Numbered from the stretch's first letter, positions 22,708 through 63,410 are shown. The stretch is 64,000 bases of DNA from a virus (IMGVR_UViG_3300020577_010320), one strand, 5' to 3'. The notes: generated by a model not told the origin, from the letters alone. Translations and numbers: made by a program.

Positions 22708-22910
22708 CCCTCCTCGTCGTACGCGAACAACTCAAACCTCCTATTCGGGTCCCAGCCGGGCAAGTCGAACCACGCGCGGTCGCTGCTCGATATCGCACTG
22801 TGTCTGCACGTGGCGATAACCGAGCCGAGTGCCGTGCCGAGTGCGTCGTGCAGATGCCACCGGCCGAACATCCGTTCTATCCGGTGTATCTTTACGTGTT
22901 CCACCGTCAC
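22704..22910 (-). CDS. tandem-array small protein, LPG...ELFxYDEEG-tail family
   Basis: ends ...WFDLPGWDPNRRFELFAYDEEG*. Confidence 0.6.
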   Translation of the reverse strand: MTVEHVKIHRIERMFGRWHLHDALGTALGSVIATCRHSAISSSDRAWFDLPGWDPNRRFELFAYDEEG

Positions 22911-23155
22911 CCCTCCTCATCGAACACGAACAACTCATCGACGTTAGCACCACCGGGTAGGTCGGCCCACGTGGTGTACCAGTCCGACAGCCGAGTCTCG
23001 TCCACCCGCCACCACCCCAGGGGGAGTACTGGGTGGAGGTGTCGCTTGTGAGGGATAAAGGCCGCAGACTGTCCGTGTAGCTGAATCTGGTAGTGTACGG
23101 TGACCGTGCCGCTAACTTCGCGCACGACACGAATCACATGGTACTCGGCCGTCAT
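22907..23155 (-). CDS. tandem-array small protein, LPG...ELFxYDEEG-tail family
   Basis: ends ...WADLPGGANVDELFVFDEEG*. Confidence 0.6.
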   Translation of the reverse strand: MTAEYHVIRVVREVSGTVTVHYQIQLHGQSAAFIPHKRHLHPVLPLGWWRVDETRLSDWYTTWADLPGGANVDELFVFDEEG

Positions 23156-25906: not shown

Positions 25907-25991
25907 TGGCGGTGCGGGCAGGAGTCGAACCTGCACGCCTGTCGGGGCGGGCCCTGAACACGGGCCTGTGTCTACACTTCACCACCGCACC
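25907..25991 (-). tRNA. tRNA gene with encoded CCA, long (type II-like) variable arm; anticodon tentatively GUU (Asn) but loop atypical
   Basis: minus strand: GGTGCGG acceptor / CCGCACC-G-CCA 3' end; T-arm GCAGG-TTCGACT-CCTGC; anticodon stem GGCCC/GGGCC with loop GUGUUCA; 15-nt variable region CGCCCCGACAGGCGU; 3-bp D stem. Confidence 0.7.
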
Positions 25992-31576: not shown

Positions 31577-32419
31577 TTACTTACCGGCCGGGTGCATTTC
31601 CTTGAACAGCGGCATGCCGTCGGACCCGGTGGGGACGTAGACGGTCGCGCCGTGGTTCTCCTTCAGGGCCTGGATCCACAGGTAGCGCAGGTAGTTAGAG
31701 TCCAGGTCCTTCTTGATGATGGCCTGGGCGTCGGCGATGCCCTTGGCCTCGATCACCTTGGACTCGGCCTCCAACTCTTTCTGCCGCTTGTTGGTCAACC
31801 CCTCCTGCTCCTTCTGCTTGAACACGTACGCCATCCGGAGCGCGTCCTGCTCGGCCGACGCCTTGGCCTCGATCCGGGACTTGACGCTCTCCGGCAGGTG
31901 CGGCTCCTGGATCATCACCTGCTCGACGATGAAGCCCTGCGGCGCCAGGTCTTTGTTCAGGTGGGCGGTGATCTTTCGCTCCACCTCGGTCCGCGCGTCC
32001 GTGTACAGGGCCTCAGGCGCGTACTCGGCCCCGACGTCGTTCATCGCGTTCTTGAAGTACGGGTCCACCAAGACCTTCTCGTACTCCTCGCCGACGGCCG
32101 CCAGGAGCGTCGTCAGCTTGGCCGGGTCGACGCGGTACAGGAGGACGCCCTTCACCTTCACGGGCAGGCCGCCCTTGGTGGGGATCGTCATCTCCTCCTC
32201 GTTCCGCTTCGTTTGCAGGTTGATGCGGTGGACCGACTTCCACGGGAGCACCAGGTACGGGCCGCCCGGCTGCAAGGTCTGGTCGTTGATCGCGCCGAAA
32301 CTGTACATCACCCCGACCGACCCCGTCGGGATGCTGAAGCAGACGCAGGTGACCGGGAACAGGATCGCCACGACCACGGCCAGGGCGATCAGCAGGAAGA
32401 CCTTCAGCTCGCTATCCAT
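31577..32419 (-). CDS. SPFH/band-7 (prohibitin/HflC-like) membrane protein
   Basis: N-terminal TM then SPFH core ...GLPVKVKGVLLYRVDPAKL...EQDALRMAYVFKQKEQEG...AKGIADAQAII; 280 aa. Confidence 0.8.
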   Translation of the reverse strand: MDSELKVFLLIALAVVVAILFPVTCVCFSIPTGSVGVMYSFGAINDQTLQPGGPYLVLPWKSVHRINLQTKRNEEEMTIPTKGGLPVKVKGVLLYRVDPAKLTTLLAAVGEEYEKVLVDPYFKNAMNDVGAEYAPEALYTDARTEVERKITAHLNKDLAPQGFIVEQVMIQEPHLPESVKSRIEAKASAEQDALRMAYVFKQKEQEGLTNKRQKELEAESKVIEAKGIADAQAIIKKDLDSNYLRYLWIQALKENHGATVYVPTGSDGMPLFKEMHPAGK

Positions 32420-32483
32420 GTGCTACTCACATCAGGAGGGAAACGGGGGCGGAACACCCGCCCCCCGTGGACGGCTTACGCCG

Positions 32484-33209
32484 TTACTGCGACTTCTTGA
32501 ACCGCGACAGTACCTCGTCGGTCGCGGCCTCTTCGTTCAGCCTCACGACCTCGTCGCGCGGGGACCGGGTCTTGTATTCCTGGGCGTCGAGCTCCTTCTG
32601 GGCGGCCGCGGCGTAATCGGTCTGGCCGAAGTCGTCCGCGGCGTTCATCTGCGTCTCGAGCTTGCCGAGTTCGATCCGAGCCCCGGCGTCGGTGCACTTG
32701 AGGTTCTCGACCTCGAGGTCGGCCCGGAGCTTGGCCGCCCGCTTCTCGGACGCCGTCAGGGATTCCGTCGCGCGGTCGTAGGTGTCCTGACACAGCTTGA
32801 CCTGGGCTTCGGCGGCGGCCAGGTCGGCGGCCAGGCGCCGCAGCGTCGCCTCGTCGGCGTTCTTGTCGACCGCCGTCTGCACGCTGACGGTGTAAGCCTT
32901 CACGTCCTTCTTCTTCGCCTCCAGGCGGCGTAGCGACTCCTGCTGGGCGGCGTAGAACTTGGCCCGTGCCTCGTTGGCCTTGACCAGCGCCGCCTGACGG
33001 TCCTTGATGTTCTGCGACCAGTTGCTGACCACGTGGGCCGCGTCGATCTCCGCCGCCTTCTCGCCGGCCTTACCCCGCAGGGCCCGCCAGATCGAGGTCA
33101 GGAGGCCGGAGCGCAGCGCTCCGACGAACAGCAGGACCGCGGCGACCGTGAACAGAATTCCCCACAACATCGTCGTCTCCTTGGACAGGGTGAAAAGTAC
33201 CTTCCTCAC
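32484..33209 (-). CDS. PspA/IM30-like coiled-coil protein
   Basis: N-terminal hydrophobic helix then long coiled coil (ALVKANEARAKFYAAQQESLRRLEAKKKDV...); adjacent to SPFH gene. Confidence 0.5.
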   Translation of the reverse strand: MRKVLFTLSKETTMLWGILFTVAAVLLFVGALRSGLLTSIWRALRGKAGEKAAEIDAAHVVSNWSQNIKDRQAALVKANEARAKFYAAQQESLRRLEAKKKDVKAYTVSVQTAVDKNADEATLRRLAADLAAAEAQVKLCQDTYDRATESLTASEKRAAKLRADLEVENLKCTDAGARIELGKLETQMNAADDFGQTDYAAAAQKELDAQEYKTRSPRDEVVRLNEEAATDEVLSRFKKSQ

Positions 33210-35803: not shown

Positions 35804-37276
35804 TTAACAGGCCAGAACCGCGTAGAGGTCGGCGTCCACCCGCCGAACGGGGGCCAGGTGGACGTCAGCCGAGCTCCGCCCGCAGCACGGCGGGGCCTCG
35901 GCCTTCGACTTGTCCAACATCTTCTGGATGTTGGTCACGAGCTTGTTGAAGTCGGCGGTCAGCGTGGCGAAGTCGGCCTTCGCCTTGATGTGTTCCGCCA
36001 GCTGCTTGACGTCGACGAGGACCACGGCCGCGTCGAGGCCGAGGTCCGCGAACTGCTTCTCGACCGACGAACTGCCGGTCGAGATGTTGACCACCACGCC
36101 GTTCACGTAGGTGGTCGTCACCGTGCCGGTGAACCCGGAGCCCGGGGCGGGCGGGTTGGGACCGGGAGGCACCGGCGGGGTCGGGCCAGGCGGGACCGGG
36201 GGCGTCGGGTCAGGGGTGGGGGCGGTGACGTCGCACCACATGGCCCCGAACCCGATACGGTTCGCGCCGTACGCGATCCTCATGTACCCCTGCTCACCCC
36301 ACCGCTCAGACCAGCTGTTACGCATGATCCAGTAGCCGCCGGTGCGGGCGGTGGGGTCATCCTTCCAGCCAACCAAGATGACGGCGTGGTTGATGCCACG
36401 CGACCCGGAACCCTGGAAGATGCCGCCCGAGTAGTTCGAGAACGCATTGTCGGCGGCGACCGCCACCGCCAGGGGCCCGTGGGCGTACAGAGCGCCCTTG
36501 ATCAGGTCCACACTCGGCACGTCGTCAGTGGCCCCGACGTAGCCGAAGTCCGCGATCTTCATCAGCCGGGCGGTATCGATCGATTTGCACCGACCCTCAC
36601 GCCCCTGGTACGGGCCGTAGAGTTCCGTAGTCGGCAGGCCGGTCTTCTTGGCCCACTCGAGCACGGTCTCCGGCCAGTCGCCGTTGCACCCGCCGTTGTT
36701 GCCGCAGTCGAGCGTGTACTGCTCGCTGAGGTTCAACTTCTGGCCAGCACGCCAGAAGGCCGACTCCACCACCCCGGTCCCGGCAAAGTCCCAACAGCTC
36801 CCGCAGGAACCTTGGTCCTTCACCGGCGGCACCCAGCCCTTCTCTCGCGCGTCGAACGCCGCAGGCAGGGCGACGTCCATCAACGCGGAGAGCTTCAGGC
36901 CGTTCCGCGACCAGGACTTCAGGGTCCGGGCCCGCAGGTCGGTGGGCACCATCAGGCCCTTACCCTTGGGGGGCAACGGGTCGGCGACCGGCTCGGGGAC
37001 CGGGGCGGGCTCGTCGGCCGAGCGACCGACCGCCTTGAGGTAGTCGAACCCGCCGGTGAACTTCACCGGCAGCTCGGAGACCGCGGCGACCCGTGTCGTC
37101 GGCGGCTGACCGACGGCCTCGTGACCGCCGGCAAAGAAGCCCAACAGGGCCGGCACGAACAACAGTCGAAACTTCACGTCGCTCTCCTTCGCCCAATCGT
37201 TCCTTACCACCTGCCCCCAAAGAACCCACGCCGCTGGGGGTAACACACCCCGTTGGCGCAGTTCCCGGAGGCGCAC
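35804..37276 (-). CDS. papain-like (C1A, cathepsin-like) cysteine peptidase with Pro-rich linker and C-terminal domain
   Basis: KDQGSCGSCWDFAGTGVVESAF (catalytic Cys motif QGxCGSCW), NHAVILVGW (His), WIMRNSWSERWGEQGY (Asn/Trp); PTPPVPPGPTPPVPPGPNPPAPG linker; 5' end likely shorter. Confidence 0.8.
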   Translation of the reverse strand: MRLRELRQRGVLPPAAWVLWGQVVRNDWAKESDVKFRLLFVPALLGFFAGGHEAVGQPPTTRVAAVSELPVKFTGGFDYLKAVGRSADEPAPVPEPVADPLPPKGKGLMVPTDLRARTLKSWSRNGLKLSALMDVALPAAFDAREKGWVPPVKDQGSCGSCWDFAGTGVVESAFWRAGQKLNLSEQYTLDCGNNGGCNGDWPETVLEWAKKTGLPTTELYGPYQGREGRCKSIDTARLMKIADFGYVGATDDVPSVDLIKGALYAHGPLAVAVAADNAFSNYSGGIFQGSGSRGINHAVILVGWKDDPTARTGGYWIMRNSWSERWGEQGYMRIAYGANRIGFGAMWCDVTAPTPDPTPPVPPGPTPPVPPGPNPPAPGSGFTGTVTTTYVNGVVVNISTGSSSVEKQFADLGLDAAVVLVDVKQLAEHIKAKADFATLTADFNKLVTNIQKMLDKSKAEAPPCCGRSSADVHLAPVRRVDADLYAVLAC

Positions 37277-38283: not shown

Positions 38284-39597
38284 TTACGCCGGCTGAGCGC
38301 TGCGCTTCAGCTCGGCCGTCTTGGCGCACATCGCCGCGACGGTGTCCAGCGTCGTCAGGTCGAGCTCTTGGAGCTGGGTCAGGACGCGGTCCTGGGCCCA
38401 GCGAATGGTCTCGTTGTACGACTGGACCTGGTTATCCAGCCGCCGCAGACGCTCGTCGTGGAAGTCCACGATGCGCTGGTGCTCGGCCTTGTACGCCTCG
38501 TACCGCGCCGCGAGGGCCTGGCGCTCGGCGACCAGCTGAGACGTTTCGACGATGGTCTCCGCGGACTCCGCCGCGTTCTCGAACACCAGGGACAGGTTCG
38601 AGTACCGAGCCGGCGGCAGCTGGGTGATCAGCGACGGCAGGTCCACGACGGCGCTGGACGGCACGTCCACGTTGCTGTCGACGACGACCGTGGCGGCCGG
38701 GTAGAGGGACGGGGTCTCGGTCACGGTGGTGGGCGCGTCCACCTGGACGGCCGTCGGCAGGACGGCGGTGGGGGCTTCGACCGGAGAGACGATGGTGTCG
38801 ACCATGATTGCAACGCTCTGACTGACCTGCGGGGCGTCGGCCTGGACGTCAGGCTCGACCGGGACGGACTCGGAGTTCACTTGGACGGTAGAGGGGCTGA
38901 GTGACTCGTTGTACGTCGACTCCGCATAGCCGGCTTTGAGCTTACGGGCGATCTCACCCATCTGGTCGGCGACGTAGTAGCCGTCGGCCGGGTGAAGGAA
39001 CAACTGGTAGCCCCAGTCGGCCGCGCGAGGGGAGAACCGGATGGTCACCCCGTCGCCGAAAGGGCTGAACAGCGAGTATTCCGCGTCGTCCACGGGCGTG
39101 TACGACGGGTCGCGGGTGAACCGCTGGGCCACGTCCACGATCCAGACCGTGGTCGCCAGGCTGTACCCGGCGGCAGTCAGGATCGCCCGGAGGGACTCGT
39201 CGACCTGATAGGCCCCGAGCTCCGCCTTGAACGCGTCGACTTTGTAGCCGGCGTCGAGCTGCTTGTCCTCGCGCCGGAAGCCGAAGTAAAGACCAGGAGC
39301 ACAGCCGCGGGTAGGTTCCGTGATGATGCCCATAGATGCTTCTGCCGTCCTCAGGTTACGGAACCGTCGTCTTCGTCCTCGAGGTAGTACTGAACGCTGA
39401 CCGGGTCGACCACGAATCTGAGGTCGCCGGCCAGCTCGACCCGCTTGTACTGCGGGGCGTCGTAATGGGATTTGTGCGCCAGCTTCCGCCGCCCGGTGTC
39501 GCCGATCGGCTGGTAAGTCTGACCCTTGCGGAGCACCTTCTTCATCAGAAATCCCACGAGTTCGAGCATGGAATAATGACGGATTTCCCCCCGTCAT
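38284..39597 (-). CDS. hypothetical protein
   Basis: 437-aa ORF, ATGA-type junction with next gene. Confidence 0.5.
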   Translation of the reverse strand: MTGGNPSLFHARTRGISDEEGAPQGSDLPADRRHRAAEAGAQIPLRRPAVQAGRAGRRPQIRGRPGQRSVLPRGRRRRFRNLRTAEASMGIITEPTRGCAPGLYFGFRREDKQLDAGYKVDAFKAELGAYQVDESLRAILTAAGYSLATTVWIVDVAQRFTRDPSYTPVDDAEYSLFSPFGDGVTIRFSPRAADWGYQLFLHPADGYYVADQMGEIARKLKAGYAESTYNESLSPSTVQVNSESVPVEPDVQADAPQVSQSVAIMVDTIVSPVEAPTAVLPTAVQVDAPTTVTETPSLYPAATVVVDSNVDVPSSAVVDLPSLITQLPPARYSNLSLVFENAAESAETIVETSQLVAERQALAARYEAYKAEHQRIVDFHDERLRRLDNQVQSYNETIRWAQDRVLTQLQELDLTTLDTVAAMCAKTAELKRSAQPA

Positions 39598-51119: not shown

Positions 51120-53567
51120 TTACTTCTCGGAGTCGCCACCGCTCGGCGGACGCAGCTCGGGAATGATGCCGGCGTCCGGGGTGTTGCCGACGATCTTCTC
51201 CTGGAGCAGAAGGACGAGTTCGCCCAGACCCTCGAACTGCGACTGCATCTGGTCCTCGAGCGGCCCGACCTCGCTCTCGCCAAACTGCTCGGTCCAGGCG
51301 TCGATGTTCCAGTGCATGTGGGCCAACAGGTCGCCCAGGTCGCTTACCGCCTTGGATAGGCGCGTCTTCGTTTCCTGCAGCAGCGTCCCGATCCGCTTGT
51401 GCTTCACGAGGGCGGCCAGGAACGCGGTGTCGAACAACTCTCGACGACCCGAAGCGGCAGCGGTCGCAACCGACCCGAGTACGTCCCGGTCCGAGTAACC
51501 TTTATCCTCGTCCTTGCTCGGCGGCGGGGGCTCTGAGCCGTTGCCGATGCCGGGGACGTCGCCCTGGATCCCGTACGTCATCGGGTATGGGCGGTACCGG
51601 TCCTGGGCCCCGGCCCGCATCAGCATATCCTGAATCGGGATCGACACGACCGACCCGGTTTCAGTCGGCACGACGTCGTCAGCGAACGAGGCAGGAGCCG
51701 CAATCTGGTCGAACGGCATGGTCGGCGCGTTGGGCGCGTCGTCAGCCAAGTTGCGGGAATACTGGTCGGCGTACTTGACCATGAACTCGACGCGGCCGTT
51801 GGCCTTGGCCACCTTCACCAACTCTTCCACCAGTTGGGCGTCGATGCCGCGGCGAGCGATGAGCTCAAACTTGACGGCGTTGACACCAGCCAGCTTGGTC
51901 TGGTTGACGAACCACGCGTGGGCGTCTTTCTTGAGCGTAACCGCCTTGTCGCCCATCTTGTGCCGACGCGCGAACAGGTACCGCTCGGGGTCAGTGCCGT
52001 CGCCCAGCTGGAGACGCTTACCGTACGCGTCATCAATCTTCAGCAGGTGACAGCCCTGAGGTAGGTACAGCTCGTTACCGTGTAGGATCGGCTTGGACGC
52101 CTCATCGAACACCTCGACGCGCTTCTCACTATCATCCTTACGGAGCGGAACGCGGCCGTGCTGGTAGTCGGGACGGTCGACGTGCTCGACGTCGTTGGCC
52201 GCGGCCCAGAACGGCTTCTTCGAGCCGACGTACCCTAGAGCGTGAACGCACCCGTCTTCCGACTTATTGAAGGGCACGGTGGCGACAAACCCGGCACCGA
52301 AGTTGGGGTTCTCGTTCACCTTGGCGATGGCGACGAAGCTGCCGTTGGGGACGCCCTCGACCTCGTCCTTCACCTGCTGCAGGTCGTCGACCCACTTGGC
52401 GAACGCGTCGTGGTCGGCCTCGCCGGTAACCCACACGGCGTTTTGATGAGTGAGCGTCCACTTCTTATCCGACTTCCGCATGACGAACACGCGGTCGCGA
52501 GCCGGACCCCACCCGGTCAGGTGGGTGAGCACGATACACTCAGCTAGTTCGTGCCCTTCCACGAGAACCTGGTAGATGCCGTTGTTAAGCGGGTTGCGGA
52601 AGATGTCGGACCCGATGTCGACGCCGCCTACCCAGGTGACCTCGGACTTGTCCTTGGGGCCGCGGTCGTCCTTGTAGATGTCTTCCTGGTCCCGGAGCTT
52701 CTCCCACTCATCCGAGTCGAACAGCATGCCCTTGGGCGGCTTCACGTCCTTCAGGTCCCCGCGACGACGCGTGATGGTTAAAGACATGGACGTGACCTCC
52801 CCCGCCTGCTTGGCGGGGAAGGTAAACAGGTCCTTGTCGGCGGGCTTGAACAGCTCGAGAGGCTTACGCGCCTCGGCTTGCTCGGCCTTCTTAAGCGCGG
52901 CGGCCAGCTTCTCGTGGCCGTAGAACTTGTCGATCGCCTTTGCGAACCACGGGTACTTACTGGCGTACTCGCCGATGTACTCCAGGACCTCGGGGTGCGC
53001 TTCGGCCACCTTGAGCAGGTCGGGGAACGTCGGCTCCGGGACGTTGAGCTTGCCGATGGCGCGGCCGACGTCTTTCTTGATCGTGGCGAAGTCCGCAGCG
53101 TACTTAGTGGGCGGGAACTTGAGCTGCCACAGGGACGGCTGGGCCGTGTCGCGGGTGTCCGACCGCCGGCGGGCTTCCGGCGGCTCGTCGCCGCTTTCCA
53201 TAAGGAACTTGTTCACGTAGTTGTCGGACAGCGGCACCGTTTGCTTGTTCTTGGGGTCGCGGAGCTGCTCCGTCCCCTTGATGACGCCGTCCCGGTAGAA
53301 CACCGGGACATACACGATCCGCTTGCCGACCTTGAACCCGAAGACGCCGACCGCCTTGGTGTTGTCCTTGTCCTGGTCCAACACCTGAAAGCCGATCTCG
53401 TGCTTGAACAGGCCGGGAGCCTTAGCCCCCAAGAACGAACGTCCGATCGTCGCCAGGCTGTTCTCGAACGTCTGAACGTCCCCGGCGGCCAGCTTCGTCA
53501 GTTCGTACTTGCTAAGTTGAAACGACATGTCGGCGTCCGTTGCGTGAGTTTGGGGGTCGCGGGCCAT
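51120..53567 (-). CDS. large hypothetical protein (815 aa)
   Basis: long uninterrupted ORF in gene-dense minus-strand run. Confidence 0.55.
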   Translation of the reverse strand: MARDPQTHATDADMSFQLSKYELTKLAAGDVQTFENSLATIGRSFLGAKAPGLFKHEIGFQVLDQDKDNTKAVGVFGFKVGKRIVYVPVFYRDGVIKGTEQLRDPKNKQTVPLSDNYVNKFLMESGDEPPEARRRSDTRDTAQPSLWQLKFPPTKYAADFATIKKDVGRAIGKLNVPEPTFPDLLKVAEAHPEVLEYIGEYASKYPWFAKAIDKFYGHEKLAAALKKAEQAEARKPLELFKPADKDLFTFPAKQAGEVTSMSLTITRRRGDLKDVKPPKGMLFDSDEWEKLRDQEDIYKDDRGPKDKSEVTWVGGVDIGSDIFRNPLNNGIYQVLVEGHELAECIVLTHLTGWGPARDRVFVMRKSDKKWTLTHQNAVWVTGEADHDAFAKWVDDLQQVKDEVEGVPNGSFVAIAKVNENPNFGAGFVATVPFNKSEDGCVHALGYVGSKKPFWAAANDVEHVDRPDYQHGRVPLRKDDSEKRVEVFDEASKPILHGNELYLPQGCHLLKIDDAYGKRLQLGDGTDPERYLFARRHKMGDKAVTLKKDAHAWFVNQTKLAGVNAVKFELIARRGIDAQLVEELVKVAKANGRVEFMVKYADQYSRNLADDAPNAPTMPFDQIAAPASFADDVVPTETGSVVSIPIQDMLMRAGAQDRYRPYPMTYGIQGDVPGIGNGSEPPPPSKDEDKGYSDRDVLGSVATAAASGRRELFDTAFLAALVKHKRIGTLLQETKTRLSKAVSDLGDLLAHMHWNIDAWTEQFGESEVGPLEDQMQSQFEGLGELVLLLQEKIVGNTPDAGIIPELRPPSGGDSEK

Positions 53568-54652: not shown

Positions 54653-55180
54653 TCATTTCAGCTTCTCGAGTAGCGGGTTGAACAACGTCTTCGTAGCAGC
54701 GAACGAGTCGCCACCCTTCAGGGCCCCCTGCAGTCCCGTCATCGCCGCCAGACCCGCTGGGCCGGCAGACAACACACCTTCCGTCAGACCGGGGGCGGCG
54801 GCCCCTAGCATGCCGCCGAACATGTCCGCGCCCGTCGGACTGTTCATCTGCTTCTGTACAAAGCTGAGCGCCGTGTTGGCCGGACCCTGCCACGACTGCG
54901 GCAGATGACTCGTCGCGGATAGGAGCGGGGGGACGTTGGCTGTCAGCTTCGACGTTGCGTCGTACGCGTTCGTACCGCCCAGCGCGTTCAGCCCCTTACC
55001 GATCGGGTTACCCAACCAACCCATTGCATCAAACCCGCCGGGCTTCCCGGACGGCGGAGTAAGTGCGGGCGTAGCACCTGGCTTGGCTGCACCGGCGTTC
55101 GGCTGCATCAAGCGTGGCGGCTGCGGGACCGACGGGGTGGCCGGGGGCGGTACCGGTGGGCTAAGAAGGGGGTTGCTCAC
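54653..55180 (-). CDS. Pro-rich low-complexity protein; C-terminus similar to 57367..58140
   Basis: PPVPPPATPSVPQPP...; tail ...FAATKTLFNPLLEKLK resembles ...KTTFSKILSNLKR. Confidence 0.45.
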   Translation of the reverse strand: MSNPLLSPPVPPPATPSVPQPPRLMQPNAGAAKPGATPALTPPSGKPGGFDAMGWLGNPIGKGLNALGGTNAYDATSKLTANVPPLLSATSHLPQSWQGPANTALSFVQKQMNSPTGADMFGGMLGAAAPGLTEGVLSAGPAGLAAMTGLQGALKGGDSFAATKTLFNPLLEKLK

Positions 55181-55256
55181 GACGCCGTCCTGATGTGTAA
55201 GTGGTTGCAGCTTTTTGAGCTACAACGAAATATAATGACGCGCAAACGTCCGATAT

Positions 55257-57140
55257 TTACAGGATCGGCTTCTTAGCGGCCTGCGCGTCCCAGCCTTTCG
55301 TCTTACCCATTTCGCCGAAGTGGAGGCCCTCGGCGAGCGGCGTTACGTACGACGTCCCCTTGGGGTCGGCGACCGCGCCGCGGGCGGCGGCGGTCAACAG
55401 GTTCTTCTCAAGGCCGGACCCGAGCATCTGCGTCATCCAGTCCGAGTCGTACTTCAGGGTGTCCTGGGACCGGATCATGACGGGCGTGAAGTCCGGCGGC
55501 GACGCGTGGGTGTGGACCTGGTCCACCCCGTACTTACCCATCGTGTCCGCTACCGACCTGGTCACCTTAGTGCCGATCGTGTAGTGGAGGGCGGGGCGTT
55601 CGAGGTACTGGCCGACTGCGTGGTTAGGACGGCCAACTTGAGTTCCGGGGCGAGGTTCGTACGACGACTCAAGATTCTGGTAACTAACCACGTCCCCAGG
55701 CGCGTGATCTCCCAACTCGCGATCCACACGCACGTGATCAATAAGACCGCGAGCGACAAGCTCGATGTTACGTCGGTCTGGGTCGAAGCCCACGTCATGG
55801 GAAGTCTCCACAAAGTGTTTAAGGAACAGCCGCCTACCCTCGCCGATTCCCTTGTGGGCTACGAATTCAGCCGGGTTGGGTAGTCCGTCGGTCAGCATGT
55901 CGCCGGCTTCAACCTTGTCGCCGACCGCAACCTTGATTTTGGCGTCCGGACGAGCGTAGTGCTCGTGGCCGTTGATCGTAACGTAATGCCCACCCTGCGG
56001 AGCCGGTCGGATCTGGTCGACCGACCCTTCCTGTTGGGCGTGCAACGCACCGTCCGTGTATTCCTTGGGTACACTGAACATCCGGTCCAGTACGGGGAAG
56101 CCCTGCTGCCCCTTGGTCGCACCGGCCACGCCGCCGCCGTGCTTGGACCCGATGATCATCTGCGTCATCGGCTCGGACAACGACTGAGCGGCGGCCAAGC
56201 CCACGTAGTCGCCCTTGGGGGCGATCACTCCGCGCTCACGGATGCCGACGTCCTTACCGTAAACGCCGCCGTCCGCGGGTCCGCCGACAAGCGGACTACG
56301 GATCAGGATCTCGTCGTGCCCCTTACGCTTGAGGTCGGCCAGCACCTCACGCGTAAGGATAGTGTTTCGCTGGTGCCCGCCTATCGGGGCCGACAGTAGG
56401 GCCCCCTCGTTGGCGGGGTCGTGAGTGTCTACGGGAAGACCACGAATGCCGCCGTGCGGGTCAGGACCGTCGTCGTCAGACACGACAAGGCGGTGGCTCA
56501 GGTTGTTGAGTCGCTTACTCAGGTAGCCGCCGTCGGCCGTACCCAGCTTCGTCAGGGTGAGACTCTGCCGGGCGCCGTAGCTGCCCGCGAAGTACTCGTG
56601 GGGCCGAAGCCCTTCGGCGAACGAGTGCTGAATCGGGTACGGGACGGGGTTGTAGTTGGCATCGGCGTATAGCGTATCGCCGGCGACCAGCGACCGCAGG
56701 TTTTCCGCCTTACCTTTCGCACCACTGACAACCTGTAGGGCGAGCGGGTTGCCAGCGGCTTGGTGCTCGGCCAGGATCGTCTTCTGGAGTGGGTCCATGT
56801 ACTCCAGCGACGTCTGGATCAGCTTGGCGTCGCGCATCTTGGCGTTCAAGCTGGTGTCGCTGAGGATGGCGTGAACGCGTTGGTTGAGTTCTTCTCGGAG
56901 CTTGGTTGACTCGGGCCCGGGGTCCATGTGCTCGGGACCGAACGAGTACCCGCCGCTCATGAACCCGGCCTCGGCCGACAAGTCCGACAGCTTCTTGAAG
57001 ATCTCGCGGTACTGGTCGGGGTGGTTACGTGCGACGTACTCGGCGATCTCGGAGATGCCCTTCTTGTTCAACGCCTTGTACCGCCCACGGAGCGCGGGCG
57101 GCAGCACCTCGTCGATCATGAGTTGGCCGACCGTGGGCAT
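55257..57140 (-). CDS. multisubunit RNA polymerase beta' C-terminal portion (regions F-H homolog)
   Basis: VVSGAKGKAENLRSLVAG, TLTKLGTADGGYLSKRLNNLSHRLVV, AAQSLSEPMTQMIIGSKHGGG match beta'/Rpb1 bridge-helix/trigger-loop region motifs. Confidence 0.8.
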   Translation of the reverse strand: MPTVGQLMIDEVLPPALRGRYKALNKKGISEIAEYVARNHPDQYREIFKKLSDLSAEAGFMSGGYSFGPEHMDPGPESTKLREELNQRVHAILSDTSLNAKMRDAKLIQTSLEYMDPLQKTILAEHQAAGNPLALQVVSGAKGKAENLRSLVAGDTLYADANYNPVPYPIQHSFAEGLRPHEYFAGSYGARQSLTLTKLGTADGGYLSKRLNNLSHRLVVSDDDGPDPHGGIRGLPVDTHDPANEGALLSAPIGGHQRNTILTREVLADLKRKGHDEILIRSPLVGGPADGGVYGKDVGIRERGVIAPKGDYVGLAAAQSLSEPMTQMIIGSKHGGGVAGATKGQQGFPVLDRMFSVPKEYTDGALHAQQEGSVDQIRPAPQGGHYVTINGHEHYARPDAKIKVAVGDKVEAGDMLTDGLPNPAEFVAHKGIGEGRRLFLKHFVETSHDVGFDPDRRNIELVARGLIDHVRVDRELGDHAPGDVVSYQNLESSYEPRPGTQVGRPNHAVGQYLERPALHYTIGTKVTRSVADTMGKYGVDQVHTHASPPDFTPVMIRSQDTLKYDSDWMTQMLGSGLEKNLLTAAARGAVADPKGTSYVTPLAEGLHFGEMGKTKGWDAQAAKKPIL

Positions 57141-57142
57141 GG

Positions 57143-57364
57143 TTATACCGTGATGCGCTTTTTGACGTGGGAAGCCTTAACGCCGAGCGTGTCGAGCACC
57201 GTCTGGAAGTCGTCGTCGTTGCAGGTAGACACTAGCACGCAGTTGTCGGCGTAAGTGACAGCCACCACTACGGGGTTGCCGTGTTGGTCGCGGATGAGAA
57301 CCCGACTGGCTTCCAACGAGTCGGGGTCACGACCACCAGGCTTGAACGTCTCGACCTTCAGCAT
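57143..57364 (-). CDS. hypothetical small protein
   Basis: 73-aa ORF. Confidence 0.4.
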   Translation of the reverse strand: MLKVETFKPGGRDPDSLEASRVLIRDQHGNPVVVAVTYADNCVLVSTCNDDDFQTVLDTLGVKASHVKKRITV

Positions 57365-57366
57365 AT

Positions 57367-58140
57367 TTAGCGCTTTAGGTTGCTCAGGATCTTACTGAAC
57401 GTGGTCTTACTGTCGCTAGACGCGGCCTTGGACACCGGCGTCCCACCAGTCAGACGACGAACGAGGGCGCTACCGTCAGCCGCAGACTTAGCAGCAACCG
57501 GCGACAGACTGGGCAGCTGTTGCGCGACCTGCGACGGGGGAGCGCCAGCGGCGGCCCCACCGGGTGCCGGAGCGCCAGGTGCAGCGCCGCCAGGACCAGG
57601 AACCGGAGGCTGCATGTTCAACACCTGAGCCGCCGGCACCTCGAGTCCGAGCTTCTCAGCCAACGCAGTCAGAATCGCCTTCTGGGCAGAGATGTCGTGC
57701 ATCAGTTGATGCCAATGATGCGGCTCGACCTTAAGGCTGGCCGTAGCCGGCTTACCCCCAGGACCGGTAGCCCCACCACCCTGTTGGAGCAGCTGGAGAA
57801 TCTGATCCATCTTGGCAGCCTGCGGGTCCTGCGGCCCACCAGGGGCTCCGCCGACGTCCGGACTCGGAGCTCCGCCGGCCGCAGCGGGGTCACCGGGGGG
57901 AGGGCCCCCAGCGCCAGGCGGCGGACCGCCAGCCCCAGGAGGGGGGCCGGCGGGGGCGCCCGGAGGAGGACCGCCCGCACCCGGCGGAGCTCCACCCTGC
58001 GACGGATCACCCCCGCCGCCCATTACCATCTGCGCGACGGCCGGAGAGGGGGTGAAGGCCGCCTTCTCCGTCGCGTCCTTCCGGGCCCCCTTCAGCGTGT
58101 TGAAAAGGTCGAAAACGGTCGGGTCGAACAAGCTGGGCAT
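57367..58140 (-). CDS. Pro/Gly/Ala-rich repeat protein
   Basis: repeats GGPPPGAPAGPPPGAGGPPPGAGGPPPGD. Confidence 0.45.
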   Translation of the reverse strand: MPSLFDPTVFDLFNTLKGARKDATEKAAFTPSPAVAQMVMGGGGDPSQGGAPPGAGGPPPGAPAGPPPGAGGPPPGAGGPPPGDPAAAGGAPSPDVGGAPGGPQDPQAAKMDQILQLLQQGGGATGPGGKPATASLKVEPHHWHQLMHDISAQKAILTALAEKLGLEVPAAQVLNMQPPVPGPGGAAPGAPAPGGAAAGAPPSQVAQQLPSLSPVAAKSAADGSALVRRLTGGTPVSKAASSDSKTTFSKILSNLKR

Positions 58141-58352
58141 CGGGGCCTCAGTGGTGGTTTTGACTGCGTGTTGTCTTCTCGGTGCTCGCGTCGTCGGTCA
58201 TACTACACTAAGTCTCTCAAACGGTACAAATGGAGTTTATGCGTGGAAGACGTCACCACTTACGACGCCACGAGCTACCGACCGGGGTCAAACCCGACGT
58301 TCCAGGGTTCGACCGCCGGCCTGGACCCGACGCTCTCCCAGCAGCCGGTCTG

Positions 58353-58902
58353 GCATCTGATGACGCGATTCCTGGTTGGGGTCCTACGTCAGCACTTCGG
58401 CACGCAGGCGGCTATTGAAGACCCGGCGATGTTCAACCGGGTGTGGACTAACGCCCCGTCGTCGCCGATCACCATCGCCTCTCTGGCCGAGTGGAAGCCG
58501 CAAGACACACAGCAACGCCCGGCCATTTACGTCGACCGACTTGAACAAACCGTCGATATGAGTAAGCGATCCGTTGGTAACCAGCTGCACGGGTTGATGC
58601 CGGCGTTCTACAACACCATCTTCGACGGCAGTCACGTCGTACATTGTCTCGGCGGGCGGGAGGGTGAAGCAGAGCTGCTGGCCCACGAGGTGTGGCGACA
58701 ACTGCACGAGTTCGCCCCGCAGATTCAGAAGGAGTTGTGTCTACTCAGGTTCCTACCGGTAAAAGTCGGTAAGCGGGTGCAGTTCCAGAGCACGACCGAG
58801 CAGTACTCCGTACCCATCGAGATTATCTACGGATACCAGGAGACGTGGCGAATCAAGAATCTGAGTGAGTCTCAGCTGAACGCCATCAAGTTGAACATCT
58901 AA
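58353..58902 (+). CDS. hypothetical protein (only plus-strand gene candidate)
   Basis: plus-strand ORF ...HGLMPAFYNTIFDGSHVVHCLGG...IEIIYGYQETWRIKNL*; no minus-strand ORF in region; 5' end uncertain (58243-58429). Confidence 0.4.
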
Positions 58903-59036
58903 CGAAGCAACCCACCTCTCGGTGGGTTGAGTCGCGGACCTAAGAGTCGAACTTAGCAAACCAAGCGTATGAAACTCAGTCGAGCACCAGCCCGTCCGCG
59001 CGTTGAGTCGAATACTATAGTACTCGACTCTTAGCG
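58903..59036. other. structured convergent-intergenic element (nested stem-loops)
   Basis: CAACCCACC-tctc-GGTGGGTTG; GAGTCGA-atactatagtac-TCGACTC; outer pairing TAAGAGTCGA...TCGACTCTTA. Confidence 0.45.
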
Positions 59037-62000
59037 TCAACCCGTAATCTCGACTCTCGTATCAAAGTTGATCCTACCGGACGCAAACGCCTTGAGCGCG
59101 TCCTTGGCCGAGGCGAACTTAACGGGCGGGTTCGTCTTGTCCTCCTGGGTCGAGAGCGCGTGTAGGCCCTGCACGTACTCCATGTTTGGTAGAAAGTTGC
59201 TCGCCTTCATGGTTGCAGGGCTGAACAGGTTCTTGGACGGCAGTAGCTTGTCCTTCACCTCTTGTACCGACTTGTCTGACAGCGGCACCTGAATGGTAAA
59301 CGTGTCGCCGTCGAAGTCTGCGGCGTACGGCTTGGTCACCAGGTGGTTGATGTGTAGAGCGTCGCCAGGTACGAGCACGGGGTTGAAGCCCATCACACTG
59401 TACCTGTGCAAAGCCGGGTATCGTGTGGCCGTAACGGGGCGGTCCTTCATCTCGGCCAACAGGGCGTCTTTGGAGATCTTCTCACGCTTCTCCACGAGCT
59501 CAGCCACCTCGGCCCGCGGGATGCCCTGACGTACGAGGCGACGGACCACGAACGGGTGGTAGATCTCCCACGCCACGGACTCGGGGATGCCGATCTGGTC
59601 CATGTCTAGGTCGGGGTTCGGCAACGCCTGACCGCGACCCGAAAGGTTGGTAGGCGTACCCAGTAGCTTCTGCTGGATGTACGAAAACTTGGCCGTATCA
59701 CCGAGCAGCCGCTGGAGAATGCCCTTAACGCCCCGCTCCTTGTTCTTGGCCCCGATCGGGTCACCGAGGCCGACGGTGGCGCGAACGGCGTCGTACACAT
59801 TGAGCCGCTCGTCGCCCACGTCGTGCGTGTGCTGACTCAGGTCCTTGTACGCCTGGTTGGCCTCCATCAGCTCTTTGTAGAGCAGGTTGGCGTCGCTGAC
59901 GACCATGTCCTGGGCGCCGTGGGCTCCGGGCCGCACGGGACGCAGACCAGGGGGAAGGACCGGAACGGCGCTGAGCATCCAATCCTTCGGGTTCTGGCCG
60001 TTCTTCTCGAGCCCCTTGAGGTACCCGAGCTTACGATTGGCCTCGTCTCGCGTGGTCTTCCTGGACGACAACGCCTGGGCCCGCGTCTTCTTCAGCTCCT
60101 GGGCGACGTTCAACGTACCCAGGGCCGCACCGATCGCCTCCATACCCGTTCCAGTCGCGATCTCGTGGCGACCCGCGATGGTGTCACGGAACTGCTTCTC
60201 AGTCAGTCCTAGCAGTCGCCGGGCCGGCTCCTCGAACGCCGGGTTGAGCATCTTCTCGTGGAGGGTGATTTTACCCCACGTCCCCATCGAGTCGGTGTTG
60301 CCGAAGATGCGGTCGTCAAACAGACCGCCAGGGTAAGGGGCGCCGTTACGCGAGAAGTCCAACGTCTCGCCGTTCTTGATCTCGCGGTCACCGGCCAGCT
60401 CCTGTACGCGTTCGTTGGTCAGCGCCTTCAGATGGTACCGGCCGTCCTTATGAATCGGGTCGACGCCGGACGCCCTGAGCTCCGTGATGAACCGAGCGAA
60501 CGCCGGGGACTGCGACGGCTTGGGGGCGGGGAACCCTTGCATGTACGCCGCCCAAAACTCCTCGTTGGCGAGGCCCTTGTTCATGTGGGCGTCGTGAATG
60601 ACCTCCGTCGCGCCGTGAGAGAGCAACGCGTTGGTGTCGCCCAGAGACGCACGCATAGCCTTACCGGTCTGGCCCCGCAGCGGCTGACCCGACTCGTCGT
60701 GTCCGCCGAGCCCACGCCCCTTGGCCTTGGCCGAGGCGATGTGGTGTAGCTTCATGACGTACAGGTTGCCGACGCCGACGCCGGGGATAGGCTTACCCGT
60801 CTTTTGGTCCGTCAGCGTCTCACGGAACTTAACGCCGTGCTTGTCCATCTCCTCACGGACCCACTTACTGATGTTCCGCTGGTCGCCGTTGTCGTCGAAG
60901 TCGTTCACCGTATACGGCTGACCCCGCTTGGCGGCGATCTTACCCAGGATCGACTCGAAGATGGCCGACGGGTTGGCGCGGGAGATCGTACCAAGTGACG
61001 ACAAGATCACATCGATCGGTCGGCCCTGCTCGTCCAGCGGCATGTGGTGGTCTGGGACGACGACGCCGATGCCCTTGTTGCCGTGGCGGCCGCTCAGTTT
61101 GTCGCCGCTCTGGAACGCCATCTGCGTCCTCACCATGACGACCGGGCCGTTCGGGCCCTTGACGACGTCCGTGACCTCACCTGGGTCGTGGTGCTCCCAC
61201 GTTTCACTTACGTCGGACAGGCCGGACTTGGCGCCGCGCGACAGGCGGCCGAAGATGCCAGGCTTCTTCCGGATGCCTAGGATCATCGGGTCGCCGTAGT
61301 TGAGCTTCTGCCCAGGAAGGACGACGCCGTCGTCGTCCATCTTCTTCAACTGGTTCAGGTCGTACTTGCCGCTGAACGCCGCGACGTGGGGCCGCTTACC
61401 CAGGATCGTGTGCTCGTCCGGCTGGAGGGTGTGCTTGTACAGGTGGTCTGACGTCAGACGCTGGGCCGCCGACTGGGAGACGAGAATGGAGTCCTCATAC
61501 ACATTGCCGCGACCGCTCATGTACGCGACACGCAGATTGGCGCCGTAAGCAGCGTGCCCCTTCTCGTCGGTGTAGTTGGATCGCGCCAGCAGCTGCCCGG
61601 GGGCCACAGGGTCGCCGGGCTGAACGAGTGGGATATTGTGCAGGCCCGACTTGCGGCCGGTCGGCATGTAGTCGTGGAGCTCGTGCTTGGTCTCGGTCCC
61701 GTCCTGATATTGAACGGTGATCTCGCCGCGCTTGACTTCCTTGACGACGCCGGGCTTGTTACCCGCGTACACCGGCCCCATGTGCCGACCGTACAGCTCC
61801 TCAAACGACTTACCGGGCTGGTTGGGTACTTGGGTGCGTACGAAGGGCGCCTCCGGCTGAACGAGCGGGAGAGACTGCGTGATCATACGGCTGCCCATCG
61901 AGCTGCGATGGGCCTTGGAGTTCGACTTCAGTGGCACCATGTTGGTGAGCGGGCTGAAGCTCTGCTCCATCGTCGGCACGACGTAGTCGACCTCGTGCCG

Positions 62001-63410
62001 CGGCGCGAACGTCAGCTTACCGCGTTGGATCACGGGGATTACGGGCGCCTTGGAGTTCATAGCCCCCGGGAACGCCAGCGTCGCCTCCATCACGTCCTGC
62101 GGAGACTTGAAGATGATCTTCCCCGACTTCCGGTCCTGGAGTGGAGCGTAGATTCGCTTGTCCGTACCCAGACGCGTACCGAACGCGACACGAAGGTCGA
62201 CGCCGATCGTCTCGCTCTCAGACGTACGAGACAGGTCGATGAACGGAAACTGACCCGTACTGATCTCGCGGGCGCTCATGGGCACCGACTCGGCGTTACG
62301 CCCGATGCCGCCCTCGCCGACCTTGGTGATGCGGGCGCCGTGATCTACGTACTCCGTAGCCGCGTTACCTTCCGGACCGATCGCCAAACCGCTCTTCGTG
62401 AACAGAGCGCGGATGGCCGGGTTGAACATGCCCGGGGTAAGACGCTTGAGGTTGCCGACGTTGGTGGCCGCCCACAGCATCTTGTTCAGGATCGGGGCGG
62501 AGCGGTGGAGGCGCTCGGCGATCAGGTGTTCGGGGCCCCACACAGAACTGAACGCCGGGTTGTCACGGTCGTCCGGCGTCGTTTCGCCCCGAGCCACAGA
62601 CAGGAGCTTCTTGGTCGTGTCGAGGAGCGGGTCCTTACCGTAGTTGGTGTACTTCTTACCGAGCGTGCGTTCCATGACCCACGGGTCAAGTGGGTACTTG
62701 GATAGCTTCTCCGCCAGCACCTGTCGCTTATCGGTGCCGTCCGGGATCGCACCTGCCGGCCCCATACGCTCCCAGTACTTGTCGATGTGGTGAGGGCGGT
62801 CGGCCTTCTGGTTGACCTTGAACAGCTCCTCACCCCAGCTGTTCTTCAACTCCTCGTCCGTCGCGCCGAACGCCTTGAGCAGGGAAATCGTGGGGATCTC
62901 GGCCTGACCCACGGACGTGCGGAACACACCGGTCTCCGCGTCCAGTGCGATACGATGGGGGACGCCGGTGCCGGGGAGTAGGTTGACGTGCGCCTCAGTT
63001 CCGCCAGACCCCTTGGTACGCGTGTAAATGCCGGGGAGAAGGCGGAGCTGGTGGGAGACCGCGGAAGCGGTACCGTCCAAAACGAAAGTACCCTGGTTCG
63101 TCAGGGTGGGCACCGACGCCAACGCCATCTTCCGTCGGTCAACGATGTCGCCGGACGACTTATCCACCAACGAGAACGTGCCGTGCATCCGACGGGTCAA
63201 AGATCGGCCGCCCAGAAGTGCTTGCTTGTGCGCCGCCAGAGTGTAAGTGGCTGGGCCCGAGTAGTGCACGTCAGACAGCTGCAGTTTGTACCGCGAATTC
63301 TCGATCGGCGGCAACGACTGTACAGTCGTTAACGCGTTATCGAACACGCTGTTGCGGACGGCGGAGTGGTCGCCGAAGCGGCGCATCGGCGGTTGTTCGA
63401 ATCCGGGCAC
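59037..63410 (-). CDS. multisubunit RNA polymerase beta subunit fused to beta' N-terminal portion
   Basis: beta signatures GDKLSGRHGNKG, GNLYVMKLHHIASAKAKGRGLGG...GQTGKAMR; beta' catalytic AADFDGD (NADFDGD) ~95 aa from C-terminus; GTG start with GGAG SD. Confidence 0.85.
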   Translation of the reverse strand: MPGFEQPPMRRFGDHSAVRNSVFDNALTTVQSLPPIENSRYKLQLSDVHYSGPATYTLAAHKQALLGGRSLTRRMHGTFSLVDKSSGDIVDRRKMALASVPTLTNQGTFVLDGTASAVSHQLRLLPGIYTRTKGSGGTEAHVNLLPGTGVPHRIALDAETGVFRTSVGQAEIPTISLLKAFGATDEELKNSWGEELFKVNQKADRPHHIDKYWERMGPAGAIPDGTDKRQVLAEKLSKYPLDPWVMERTLGKKYTNYGKDPLLDTTKKLLSVARGETTPDDRDNPAFSSVWGPEHLIAERLHRSAPILNKMLWAATNVGNLKRLTPGMFNPAIRALFTKSGLAIGPEGNAATEYVDHGARITKVGEGGIGRNAESVPMSAREISTGQFPFIDLSRTSESETIGVDLRVAFGTRLGTDKRIYAPLQDRKSGKIIFKSPQDVMEATLAFPGAMNSKAPVIPVIQRGKLTFAPRHEVDYVVPTMEQSFSPLTNMVPLKSNSKAHRSSMGSRMITQSLPLVQPEAPFVRTQVPNQPGKSFEELYGRHMGPVYAGNKPGVVKEVKRGEITVQYQDGTETKHELHDYMPTGRKSGLHNIPLVQPGDPVAPGQLLARSNYTDEKGHAAYGANLRVAYMSGRGNVYEDSILVSQSAAQRLTSDHLYKHTLQPDEHTILGKRPHVAAFSGKYDLNQLKKMDDDGVVLPGQKLNYGDPMILGIRKKPGIFGRLSRGAKSGLSDVSETWEHHDPGEVTDVVKGPNGPVVMVRTQMAFQSGDKLSGRHGNKGIGVVVPDHHMPLDEQGRPIDVILSSLGTISRANPSAIFESILGKIAAKRGQPYTVNDFDDNGDQRNISKWVREEMDKHGVKFRETLTDQKTGKPIPGVGVGNLYVMKLHHIASAKAKGRGLGGHDESGQPLRGQTGKAMRASLGDTNALLSHGATEVIHDAHMNKGLANEEFWAAYMQGFPAPKPSQSPAFARFITELRASGVDPIHKDGRYHLKALTNERVQELAGDREIKNGETLDFSRNGAPYPGGLFDDRIFGNTDSMGTWGKITLHEKMLNPAFEEPARRLLGLTEKQFRDTIAGRHEIATGTGMEAIGAALGTLNVAQELKKTRAQALSSRKTTRDEANRKLGYLKGLEKNGQNPKDWMLSAVPVLPPGLRPVRPGAHGAQDMVVSDANLLYKELMEANQAYKDLSQHTHDVGDERLNVYDAVRATVGLGDPIGAKNKERGVKGILQRLLGDTAKFSYIQQKLLGTPTNLSGRGQALPNPDLDMDQIGIPESVAWEIYHPFVVRRLVRQGIPRAEVAELVEKREKISKDALLAEMKDRPVTATRYPALHRYSVMGFNPVLVPGDALHINHLVTKPYAADFDGDTFTIQVPLSDKSVQEVKDKLLPSKNLFSPATMKASNFLPNMEYVQGLHALSTQEDKTNPPVKFASAKDALKAFASGRINFDTRVEITG

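Follow-up and report, generated by a model that had tools for sequence, protein, structure and literature searches.

A two-chain RNA polymerase of an uncultured tailed phage, with β fused to the amino-terminal part of β′

What kind of RNA polymerase (RNAP) is encoded when β is joined in one chain to the first part of β′ and the remainder of β′ has a gene of its own, and does such an enzyme belong to a virus or to a cell? This question is raised by positions 55,257 to 63,410 of IMGVR_UViG_3300020577_010320, a DNA sequence of 64,000 nucleotides (hereafter the window, meaning that whole stretch). A first-pass annotation, made from the sequence alone, had proposed a divergent, virus-encoded multisubunit RNAP at this locus, and our analysis leads to the same overall view. 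The window is part of the genome of a large, high-GC, uncultured tailed phage that encodes its own RNAP in two proteins, a β::β′N fusion (β plus the amino-terminal part of β′) and a separate carboxy-terminal part (β′C), and the fusion gene is a new, distant member of a family that includes genes of the Salmonella phage Arash. Judging from the conservation of catalytic residues and domains, these proteins almost certainly form a functional phage-encoded multisubunit RNAP. Our wider reading, that of a minimal two-chain phage transcriptase that is probably delivered with the virion, appears likely to us, with appreciable room for doubt.

Architecture of the two RNAP genes

The 1457-amino-acid (aa) product of the fusion gene carries β and β′ profiles on one chain, as had been proposed, with Pfam matches to RNA_pol_Rpb2_6 (residues 554-914, E 5.6e-43), RNA_pol_Rpb1_1 (1130-1194), and RNA_pol_Rpb1_2 (1254-1386, E 2.1e-19). 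The suggested comparison with RNAP profiles was extended to solved structures in the PDB, where residues 29-988 correspond to a complete cyanobacterial β and residues 1068-1455 to E. coli β′ 159-550; bacterial RNAP matches with E 1e-53, and identity to bacterial β and β′ is 26-31%. E. coli numbering was obtained here with Salmonella RpoB and RpoC (locus L009) as a ruler, together with a family profile. The carboxy terminus of β, which ends in FITELRASGVDPIHKDG, runs directly into approximately residue 15 of β′ (RYHLKALTNERVQELAGDREIKNGETLDF), so that the junction lies at about residues 990/991 with no linker, and it is free of gaps in all 29 family members examined, including Arash gp206 and protein 0261 of Vibrio phage D69.

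The fusion is not an artefact of assembly, as the same-cluster (at least 90% identical) 1457-aa open reading frame (ORF) occurs in three independent Logan assemblies and a single unbroken ORF crosses the β/β′ junction in more than 100 protein clusters. A strain variant on a 74-kb contig (L006) has 97% DNA identity to the window at this locus, with 399 mismatches and no insertions or deletions over 14,964 nucleotides.

The hallmark motifs that had been quoted for this protein are all present: GDKLSGRHGNKG in the β active site, GNLYVMKLHH at residues 881-890, and AADFDGD in the catalytic region of β′. Within the first of these D770, K771, and K779, and within the last D1365, D1367, G1368, and D1369, are invariant in 29 homologues down to 29% identity. 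In the window enzyme Ala stands in place of the canonical Asn of NADFDGD; across the family this position can be A, N, G, S, L, or M, and DHDGD is found in part of the members. In an alignment by eye, I, G, and E stand at the positions of Q513, F514, and D516, and the enzyme is accordingly predicted to resist rifampicin. The β′N module keeps the lid, clamp-helix, rudder, and catalytic double-psi β-barrel segments with no large gaps (β′ 160-550, family profile; a further matched stretch is β′ 29-65), and its clamp-helix segment aligns without gaps. Missing from the β module are SI1 (225-343) and SI2 (938-1040, E. coli β numbering), while β′N lacks a stretch of about 66 residues with the CxC...CxxC zinc-binding domain, which is deleted family-wide.

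The remainder of β′ is encoded in a 627-aa ORF of its own, as the first-pass annotation had it, 1,896 bp from the fusion gene. Here the expected bridge-helix and trigger-loop region is borne out by a match to RNA_pol_Rpb1_5 (E 6.8e-21) and by the alignment of residues 103-349 with E. coli β′ 692-951, to which a further aligned segment, 1194-1286, can be added. In a PDB search residues 3-492 correspond to mycobacterial β′ 667-1188, and overall residues 1 to about 609 cover β′ from about 574 to about 1360, the protein starting at the equivalent of E. coli TTVGRAIL (~574). A segment ending in LTAAARGAVADPKGTSYVTPLAEGLHFG, matched by eye to the E. coli sequence, is presumably region H. In five related loci (L003 at 20733-23144, L010, L060, L062, and L074) the β′C homologues reach 800-1,000 aa through an insertion close to the trigger loop (following residue ~330-390), which could be an intein or an SI3-like domain.

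The position of the split was only partly captured by the earlier comparison with cyanobacteria. It does lie in the same linker after region D, as in cyanobacterial and chloroplast RpoC1/RpoC2, but it is offset from the cyanobacterial γ/β′ boundary. The split falls at E. coli ~552/574, with an identical carboxy terminus and amino terminus in all split members; the fusion ends at γ residue ~556 of 624-626, γ thus being some 70 residues longer, and RpoC2 begins about 12 residues inside the phage β′C (RpoC2 93-99 corresponds to β′C 105-106). Likewise, the statement that the two genes are not adjacent is correct insofar as three genes, one in the opposite orientation, lie between them, but it understates a fixed order. 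Among the best 80 of at least 509 related viral contigs in IMG/VR, β′C was found in 66, and in 66 of these 66 its gene follows that of the fusion on the same strand, with an unchanging first residue. The distance between the two genes ranges from 851 to 7,444 bp in these loci, with a mode of about 1.0 kb, and in 4 loci β′C was not found despite 10 kb of downstream sequence.

A further property sets both proteins apart. The fusion and β′C contain no cysteine in 2,084 residues, against an average of 1.6% for the remaining predicted proteins of the window (P ~3e-15); for comparison, Salmonella β and β′ have 7 and 15. Cysteine is likewise absent from 20 of 29 fusion homologues and from most β′C homologues. 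The β′C proteins of the Arash clade have exactly four, aligned to the ligands of the second zinc site of E. coli (C814, C888, C895, and C898), all four of which are replaced in the window clade. The first zinc site (E. coli C70/C72/C85/C88) is absent from the whole family, and the window enzyme thus lacks both β′ zinc sites of bacterial-type RNAP. Neighboring proteins are depleted too (57367-58140, 54653-55180, and several upstream ORFs of L006), and at the other extreme one protein of the window (44126-45733) has 7.1% cysteine. An enzyme with neither zinc sites, nor lineage-specific insertions, nor cysteine is a new observation of this study.

Table 1. Coordinates of the RNAP genes, their modules and motifs, and the neighboring features
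Feature	Position	Strand	Remarks
β::β′N fusion gene	59037..63410	-	1457 aa; GTG start; 0 Cys; ORF unbroken in >100 homologous clusters
β module, residues 1-~990	60441..63410	-	corresponds to E. coli β 51-224, 420-933, 1050-1146, 1177-1340; without SI1, SI2
β active-site motif GDKLSGRHGNKG	61071..61106	-	residues 769-780
β′N module, residues ~991-1457	59040..60440	-	corresponds to E. coli β′ ~15-65 and 160-552
Catalytic motif AADFDGD	59304..59324	-	residues 1363-1369
Structured spacer 3′ of the fusion gene	58903..59036	-	134 nucleotides; three hairpins; minimum free energy -61 kcal/mol, z = -5.0
219-aa protein gene	58243..58902	+	lineage-specific insertion between the RNAP genes; a ~1-kb gap, as in relatives, has space for the two conserved ORFs only
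257-aa Pro/Gly/Ala-rich protein gene	57367..58140	-	0 Cys; conserved central helix; conserved cassette member between the RNAP genes
73-aa protein gene	57143..57364	-	directly upstream of β′C; conserved; small β-sheet plus helix
β′C gene	55257..57140	-	627 aa; 0 Cys; corresponds to E. coli β′ ~574-1360; without SI3 and second zinc site
F-loop and bridge-helix region (SGAKGKAENLRSL ... GARQSLTLTKLGTADGGYLSKRLNNLSHR)	56490..56726	-	by alignment to solved RNAP chains
Trigger-loop N-terminal arm AAAQSLSEPMTQMIIGSKHGGG	56121..56195	-	trigger-loop His kept; no SI3 insertion
175-aa protein gene	54653..55180	-	0 Cys; downstream of β′C; conserved in the 63%-identical relative L003
~800-aa (815-aa) protein gene	51120..53567	-	follows β′C in 52 related loci

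Relatives of the enzyme and comparison with known systems

Relatives of the fusion protein are numerous. The best 80 IMG/VR contigs, the longest of 235 kb, all carry full-length fusions with matches over residues ~1-1456, and a protein database search returned 149 clusters at E <= 1e-10, most of them of 1,435-1,550 aa and with both Rpb2_6 and Rpb1_2. Among 185,579 species genomes in GTDB, relatives were found on three contigs of metagenome-assembled genomes (MAGs) only and in no isolate genomes. The first-pass annotation had noted that no ribosomal-protein genes flank the locus; there are none in the window, nor is there any rplKAJL/rpsL context at the locus, unlike at the Salmonella control locus (L009). 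With cultured phages and at least 509 viral contigs among the relatives, we concur that this is a virus-encoded multisubunit RNAP and not a host rpoBC. No close DNA match to the window was found in phage records.

Five clusters (P0112-P0116, ~2,000-2,500 aa) also have Rpb1_5 and are full β::β′ fusions. At the locus of one of them (P0113, 2077 aa) the two proteins of the window align head to tail, the first ending at nucleotide 10647 and the second starting at nucleotide 10648, with nothing missing between them. Intein or LAGLIDADG domains occur in at least 28 of the 120 homologues listed. In Vibrio phages D181 and D148 the fusion gene is broken by a homing-endonuclease cassette (a 514-aa N-part, the endonuclease gene, and a 1006-aa C-part), and comparison of the D181 locus (L095, 2968-8482) with the intact D69 locus (L002, 8289-12872) shows ongoing fragmentation of RNAP genes.

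The closest known counterparts are in cultured phages. Salmonella phage Arash (OQ632216) has gp206 (1525 aa) and gp216 (606 aa) 4.8 kb apart, and Vibrio phage D69 has 0261 and 0264 0.6 kb apart, in the same layout as in the window; with D181 and D148 these phages share a fusion of ~1,525 aa, a β′C of ~606 aa downstream on the same strand, and the same split residue. Arash-type loci also have an SNF2-type helicase and a gp218-like protein nearby, and their fusion is nearly free of cysteine. They differ from the window in sequence (27-29% identity), in the four cysteines of the second zinc site, which Arash and D69 keep and the window clade has lost entirely, and in gene content: in the Arash clade a portal gene lies immediately upstream and a sigma gene 8 kb away in the same direction, both of them unseen in the window, and in neither Arash nor D69 could a counterpart be detected for the two proteins encoded between the RNAP genes of the window clade. 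The published Arash annotation names the two proteins "beta" and "beta-prime", and the fusion is mentioned neither there nor in the Arash paper (PMC10585845). In full-text literature searches, including reviews of 2020, 2021, and 2026, we found no description of a phage RNAP composed of β::β′N and β′C.

The phiKZ/AR9 enzymes resemble this RNAP in that they are phage β/β′ homologues without α and ω, with a split after the catalytic double-psi β-barrel near the cyanobacterial site, one form packaged in virions, and an SNF2-type helicase linked to the RNAP genes; for phiKZ-like phages, Iyer et al. had pointed out a comparable link between Swi2/Snf2 and RNAP genes. In contrast to the window enzyme, in which β is whole (residues 1-~990) and fused to β′N, those enzymes consist of four to five polypeptides with β split in two or three, and they come as two paralogous sets, virion and non-virion, where Arash has one. 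They also have no sigma homologues and use gp68 or gp226 instead, whereas clades related to the window have sigma-70-family genes. The AR9 match to the fusion (E ~1e-11 over 320 aa) is much weaker than that of bacterial RNAP.

Another group of large, uncultured tailed phages, mReC (Weinheimer & Aylward 2020, PMC7481178), as well as cultured phages such as Cobetia phage Carin-5, have β and β′ that can be aligned to the cellular COG0085 and COG0086. In Carin-5 the genes are adjacent in the order sigma-β′-β, and the mReC tables list separate adjacent β (~1,000-1,400 aa) and β′ (~900-1,000 aa) genes, with neither a fusion nor a split mentioned. Membership of the present family in mReC finds no support in the supplements (Supplementary Data 2), whose metagenome identifiers and gene sizes do not match, and it is by gene layout that the family is set apart. 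The crAss-like, YonO, and P23-45 enzymes are single-chain and far more divergent.

Each half of the architecture has a cellular precedent. In Helicobacter and Wolbachia the carboxy terminus of β is likewise joined head to tail to the amino terminus of β′, and such cellular rpoB-rpoC fusions are functional, as is an engineered fusion in E. coli. The split has its parallel in the cyanobacterial and chloroplast subunits discussed above. The phage enzyme differs from these precedents in combining fusion and split in one viral enzyme and in having no SI3, no zinc sites, and no α, ω, or ribosomal gene context.

Work on phage multisubunit RNAPs addresses the minimal size of a cellular-type polymerase, its assembly in the absence of α and ω, and the origin of these enzymes. 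To these questions the locus adds a widespread family that can be aligned to bacterial RNAP, consists of two chains or one, has both barrels on one chain, and in the window clade has no zinc sites or cysteines; such compactness recommends it for structural studies, for synthetic biology, and for the design of orthogonal transcription systems. The relatives also provide a natural fission/fusion series, from full fusions through splits with inserts of 0.85-7.4 kb to versions with inteins or homing endonucleases, in which the fragmentation of RNAP genes can be followed.

Proposed virion delivery, possible partner proteins, and alternative explanations

Our results lead us to propose the following model. 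The 1457-aa chain contributes both double-psi β-barrels, that of β with its two catalytic lysines and that of β′ with its three Mg-binding aspartates, and since both barrels are on this protein the active center is located on one chain; the 627-aa protein supplies the bridge helix, trigger loop, jaw, and carboxy-terminal part of the clamp. The covalent link from β to β′ may replace the α-dimer as assembly platform, and in that sense the enzyme would be independent of α. It would be packaged in the capsid, injected with the DNA, and start phage transcription independently of host RNAP. The split of β′ may have arisen by gene fission at a permissive linker between domains, followed by gene insertions; either direction, fusion or fission, is possible, and fission seems most likely given that fully fused relatives exist, that the inserted genes vary, and that close relatives have acquired homing endonucleases and inteins.

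Packaging of the enzyme in this phage, which we consider rather probable, is suggested by homology to Arash, by the cysteine depletion, and by the gene neighborhood. In purified Arash virions (PMC10585845), gp206 was the most-detected protein, with 3516 spectra and 100% coverage, and gp216 (1210 spectra), the helicase gp217 (1148), the structural protein gp218 (1149), the sigma factor gp10 (467), and two RNA ligases were also present; its authors suggested a role in early transcription. The 815-aa protein encoded downstream of β′C in the window matches gp218 weakly (E 6e-06, amino-terminal ~150 aa only). The loss of cysteine may be an adaptation of a protein that survives outside the cell and probably unfolds to pass the tail. 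If virion delivery is general in the family, it would constitute a host-independent route to early transcription that is distinct from those of phiKZ/AR9 and N4 and that may use sigma factors. Arash is cultured and infects Salmonella, so these predictions can be tested directly.

The annotation had also recommended a search for α-, ω-, or sigma-like partners, and this search came back empty. Pfam was run on the predicted ORFs of the window in concatenated packs, from which about 35 ORFs of less than 95 aa, members of the small "DEEG" family described below, were excluded. In the window ORFs thus scanned and in the further 9.4 kb of L006 there was no match to RNA_pol_A, RNA_pol_L, or Rpb6, and in the same 64 kb plus 9.4 kb neither Pfam nor jackhmmer with the Arash sigma found a sigma factor, with Arash gp196 recovered as a positive control (Sigma70_r2, E 6e-10). 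Some related clades do have sigma-70-family ORFs, which in Arash, L072, L082, and L074 precede the fusion gene by 8-9 kb. Promoter specificity would probably be conferred by a sigma-like factor that the phage encodes in another part of its genome, as is suggested by these genes and by the retained clamp-helix segment, to which sigma docks; we regard sigma-dependent initiation as plausible and lean slightly against it.

An SNF2 helicase is encoded on L006, 5.7 kb upstream of the fusion gene, and resembles Arash gp217 (29% identity, E 5e-59), whose gene directly follows that of β′C in Arash; in L028-L031 the two RNAP genes flank that of the helicase. The helicase would probably serve as a recycling or termination factor like RapA or NPH-I, and whether it is a functional partner of the polymerase is for us an even call.

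Separately, the motif GTCATWAT occurs five times, always on the coding strand (minus; 3705-3712, 39573-39580, 46209-46216, 48315-48322, and 55232-55239), against 0.62 expected. Four copies are intergenic; they lie about 17-18 nucleotides beyond the TAA that ends the preceding gene, and in many cases a hairpin comes next. One copy stands directly after β′C, at a place where it is also found in L006. The five sites hint at a -10-like promoter element; there is none in the 63%-identical L003, including the position after β′C.

Several points count against the model as a whole. The packaging argument relies on a homologue from a different phage with 28% identity, and the authors of the Arash study (PMC10585845) themselves caution that abundant proteins could be carried over into virion preparations. 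PHROGs and Pfam recognize no capsid, portal, or terminase genes in the window, and no α, ω, or sigma was detected in the regions searched. Only one RNAP set is present in the 64 kb plus 9.4 kb seen, as in the complete Arash genome, and this being part of the phage genome, a second set may be encoded elsewhere in it. The two intervening proteins and the ~800-aa neighbor have no functional match, so that their link to the polymerase is positional only. Finally, since the Asn of NADFDGD is replaced by Ala and is variable in the family, the substrate chemistry may differ.

Some of these points favor the alternative that survives best, namely, that the RNAP is functional but not packaged, is made after infection, and transcribes middle or late genes only, like the non-virion RNAPs of phiKZ/AR9, early genes being transcribed by host RNAP or by another injected enzyme. 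No recognizable structural genes adjoin the RNAP genes in the window, the caution about highly expressed enzymes in virion preparations applies, and GTCATWAT, as a sigma-70-like -10 element in intergenic spacers, could serve host RNAP. Nevertheless, the dominance of gp206 in Arash virions together with the single RNAP set of that phage, the near absence of cysteine from the family, unlike in cytoplasmic enzymes of the same window, and the homology of the conserved ~800-aa neighbor to an Arash virion protein speak against it, and we judge it unlikely, if not to be taken lightly.

Much less probable is that the RNAP has decayed into a relic, with a structural or ejection role in place of RNA synthesis. 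Such a relic would fit the loss of the NADFDGD Asn and of both zinc sites, the deletion of many modules, and the extreme abundance of the Arash homologue in virions. It is at odds with the conservation of the metal-binding aspartates, both catalytic lysines, the bridge helix, and the trigger-loop His down to 29% identity, with the presence of both halves together in 66 loci, and with the inteins, whose usual targets are essential, active proteins, in at least 28 of the homologues listed.

The weakest explanation, a cellular rpoBC of an unusual bacterium or a misbinned MAG in which a Helicobacter/Wolbachia-like fusion is combined with a cyanobacterial-type rpoC split, can draw on the three MAG-binned contigs and on an identity to bacterial β/β′ about the same as that to Arash, and it is nonetheless dismissed, given that a host chromosome is contradicted by the lack of ribosomal or housekeeping genes and of any α, ω, or sigma gene in the window ORFs scanned, by 70 tiny tandem ORFs and phage-type GP88, RNA ligase, and Thg1-like genes, by the absence of the family from isolate genomes and its presence in at least 509 IMG/VR contigs and in cultured phages, and by the alignment of Arash over its full length across the junction (E 1e-162) compared with bacterial matches in pieces (E ~1e-30).

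Returning to the two-chain, virion-delivered transcriptase, we tentatively extend it to its strongest form, which we think possible and on balance doubtful. This would be the most reduced bacterial-type multisubunit RNAP known, without cysteine, zinc, α, or ω, in two chains (one in some relatives), carried in the capsid alongside an SNF2 helicase and delivered into the cell by threading through the tail; the intervening proteins would then be new subunits or adaptors for packaging and ejection, and the loss of cysteine an adaptation to the extracellular state and to unfolding during ejection.

The gene cassette and the rest of the window

The RNAP genes are part of a conserved cassette in the order fusion, ~240-aa Pro/Ala-rich protein, ~75-80-aa protein, β′C, and then ~800-aa protein. 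The modal gap of ~1 kb consists of just two conserved ORFs, equivalents of the 257-aa and 73-aa genes of the window, and it is for this reason that the 219-aa gene on the opposite strand is considered lineage-specific. The spacer that follows the fusion gene is probably a bidirectional terminator between the convergent genes. A tRNA-Met called within it by ARAGORN (58931-59000) has no Rfam support even at E <= 1 (searched over 58850-59080) and is taken to reflect the terminator hairpins.

PHROGs, Pfam, and a PDB profile search gave no match for the 73-aa, 257-aa, and ~800-aa proteins. By predicted fold, too, none of the three has a match. For the ~800-aa neighbor, an AlphaFold2 model of the 802-aa protein (predicted local distance difference test score 70.6, predicted template modeling score 0.40) has no PDB match by Foldseek at E <= 0.001, the predicted fold of the 73-aa family has no known fold relative, and hhalign showed no relation between that family and small ORFs of D69 and Arash.

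The remaining window is phage-like, with all genes on one strand and few PHROG matches; its recognizable genes encode an RNA ligase, a Thg1-like protein, an Mre11-type exonuclease, GP88, a dCTP-deaminase-like protein, ThiF and JAB proteins, and a papain-type protease. Positions 1-29,700 (minus strand) hold a tandem array of 70 small ORFs with a median spacing of ~230 bp, none of them on the plus strand. Their products all end in L(F/Y)x(x)D(E)EG-stop, with a W..LPG motif upstream of this tail, and neither Pfam, PHROGs, nor any known family matches the array. At the junctions the DNA reads GACGAGGAGGGGTGATG, with GGAGGGGTGA occurring 45 times; the DEEG codons double as the Shine-Dalgarno sequence of the next ORF, and the TGA stop overlaps its ATG. 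The array is interrupted by a 485-bp noncoding stretch (7353-7837; G+C 0.49 versus 0.62) with a (TTC)n run and A/T-rich repeats, which may be a regulatory region or an origin. An 85-nucleotide tRNA-Asn was called by ARAGORN at 25907-25991; at the gathering score, Rfam reports no tRNA in the window.

Several other genes, all on the minus strand, deserve mention. A ThiF-family E1-like protein (41729-42487, E 1.4e-24) and a 514-aa protein with a weak JAB/MPN match (42503-44047) lie within 41729-46153 together with a 535-aa protein of 7% cysteine and a 114-aa ORF, and these genes may form a ubiquitin-like conjugation/deconjugation module. At 35804-37276 is a papain-family Peptidase_C1 cysteine protease (Pfam E 2.1e-53), which is unusual in a phage, and at 31577-33209 adjacent genes for SPFH/Band 7 (E 9.8e-29) and PspA/IM30-like (E 5.7e-05) proteins point to membrane-associated functions. 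A Thg1-like tRNA-His guanylyltransferase domain (19611-20501, E 1e-28) and the RNA ligase (30314-31501, E 3.6e-19) together suggest an RNA repair toolkit.

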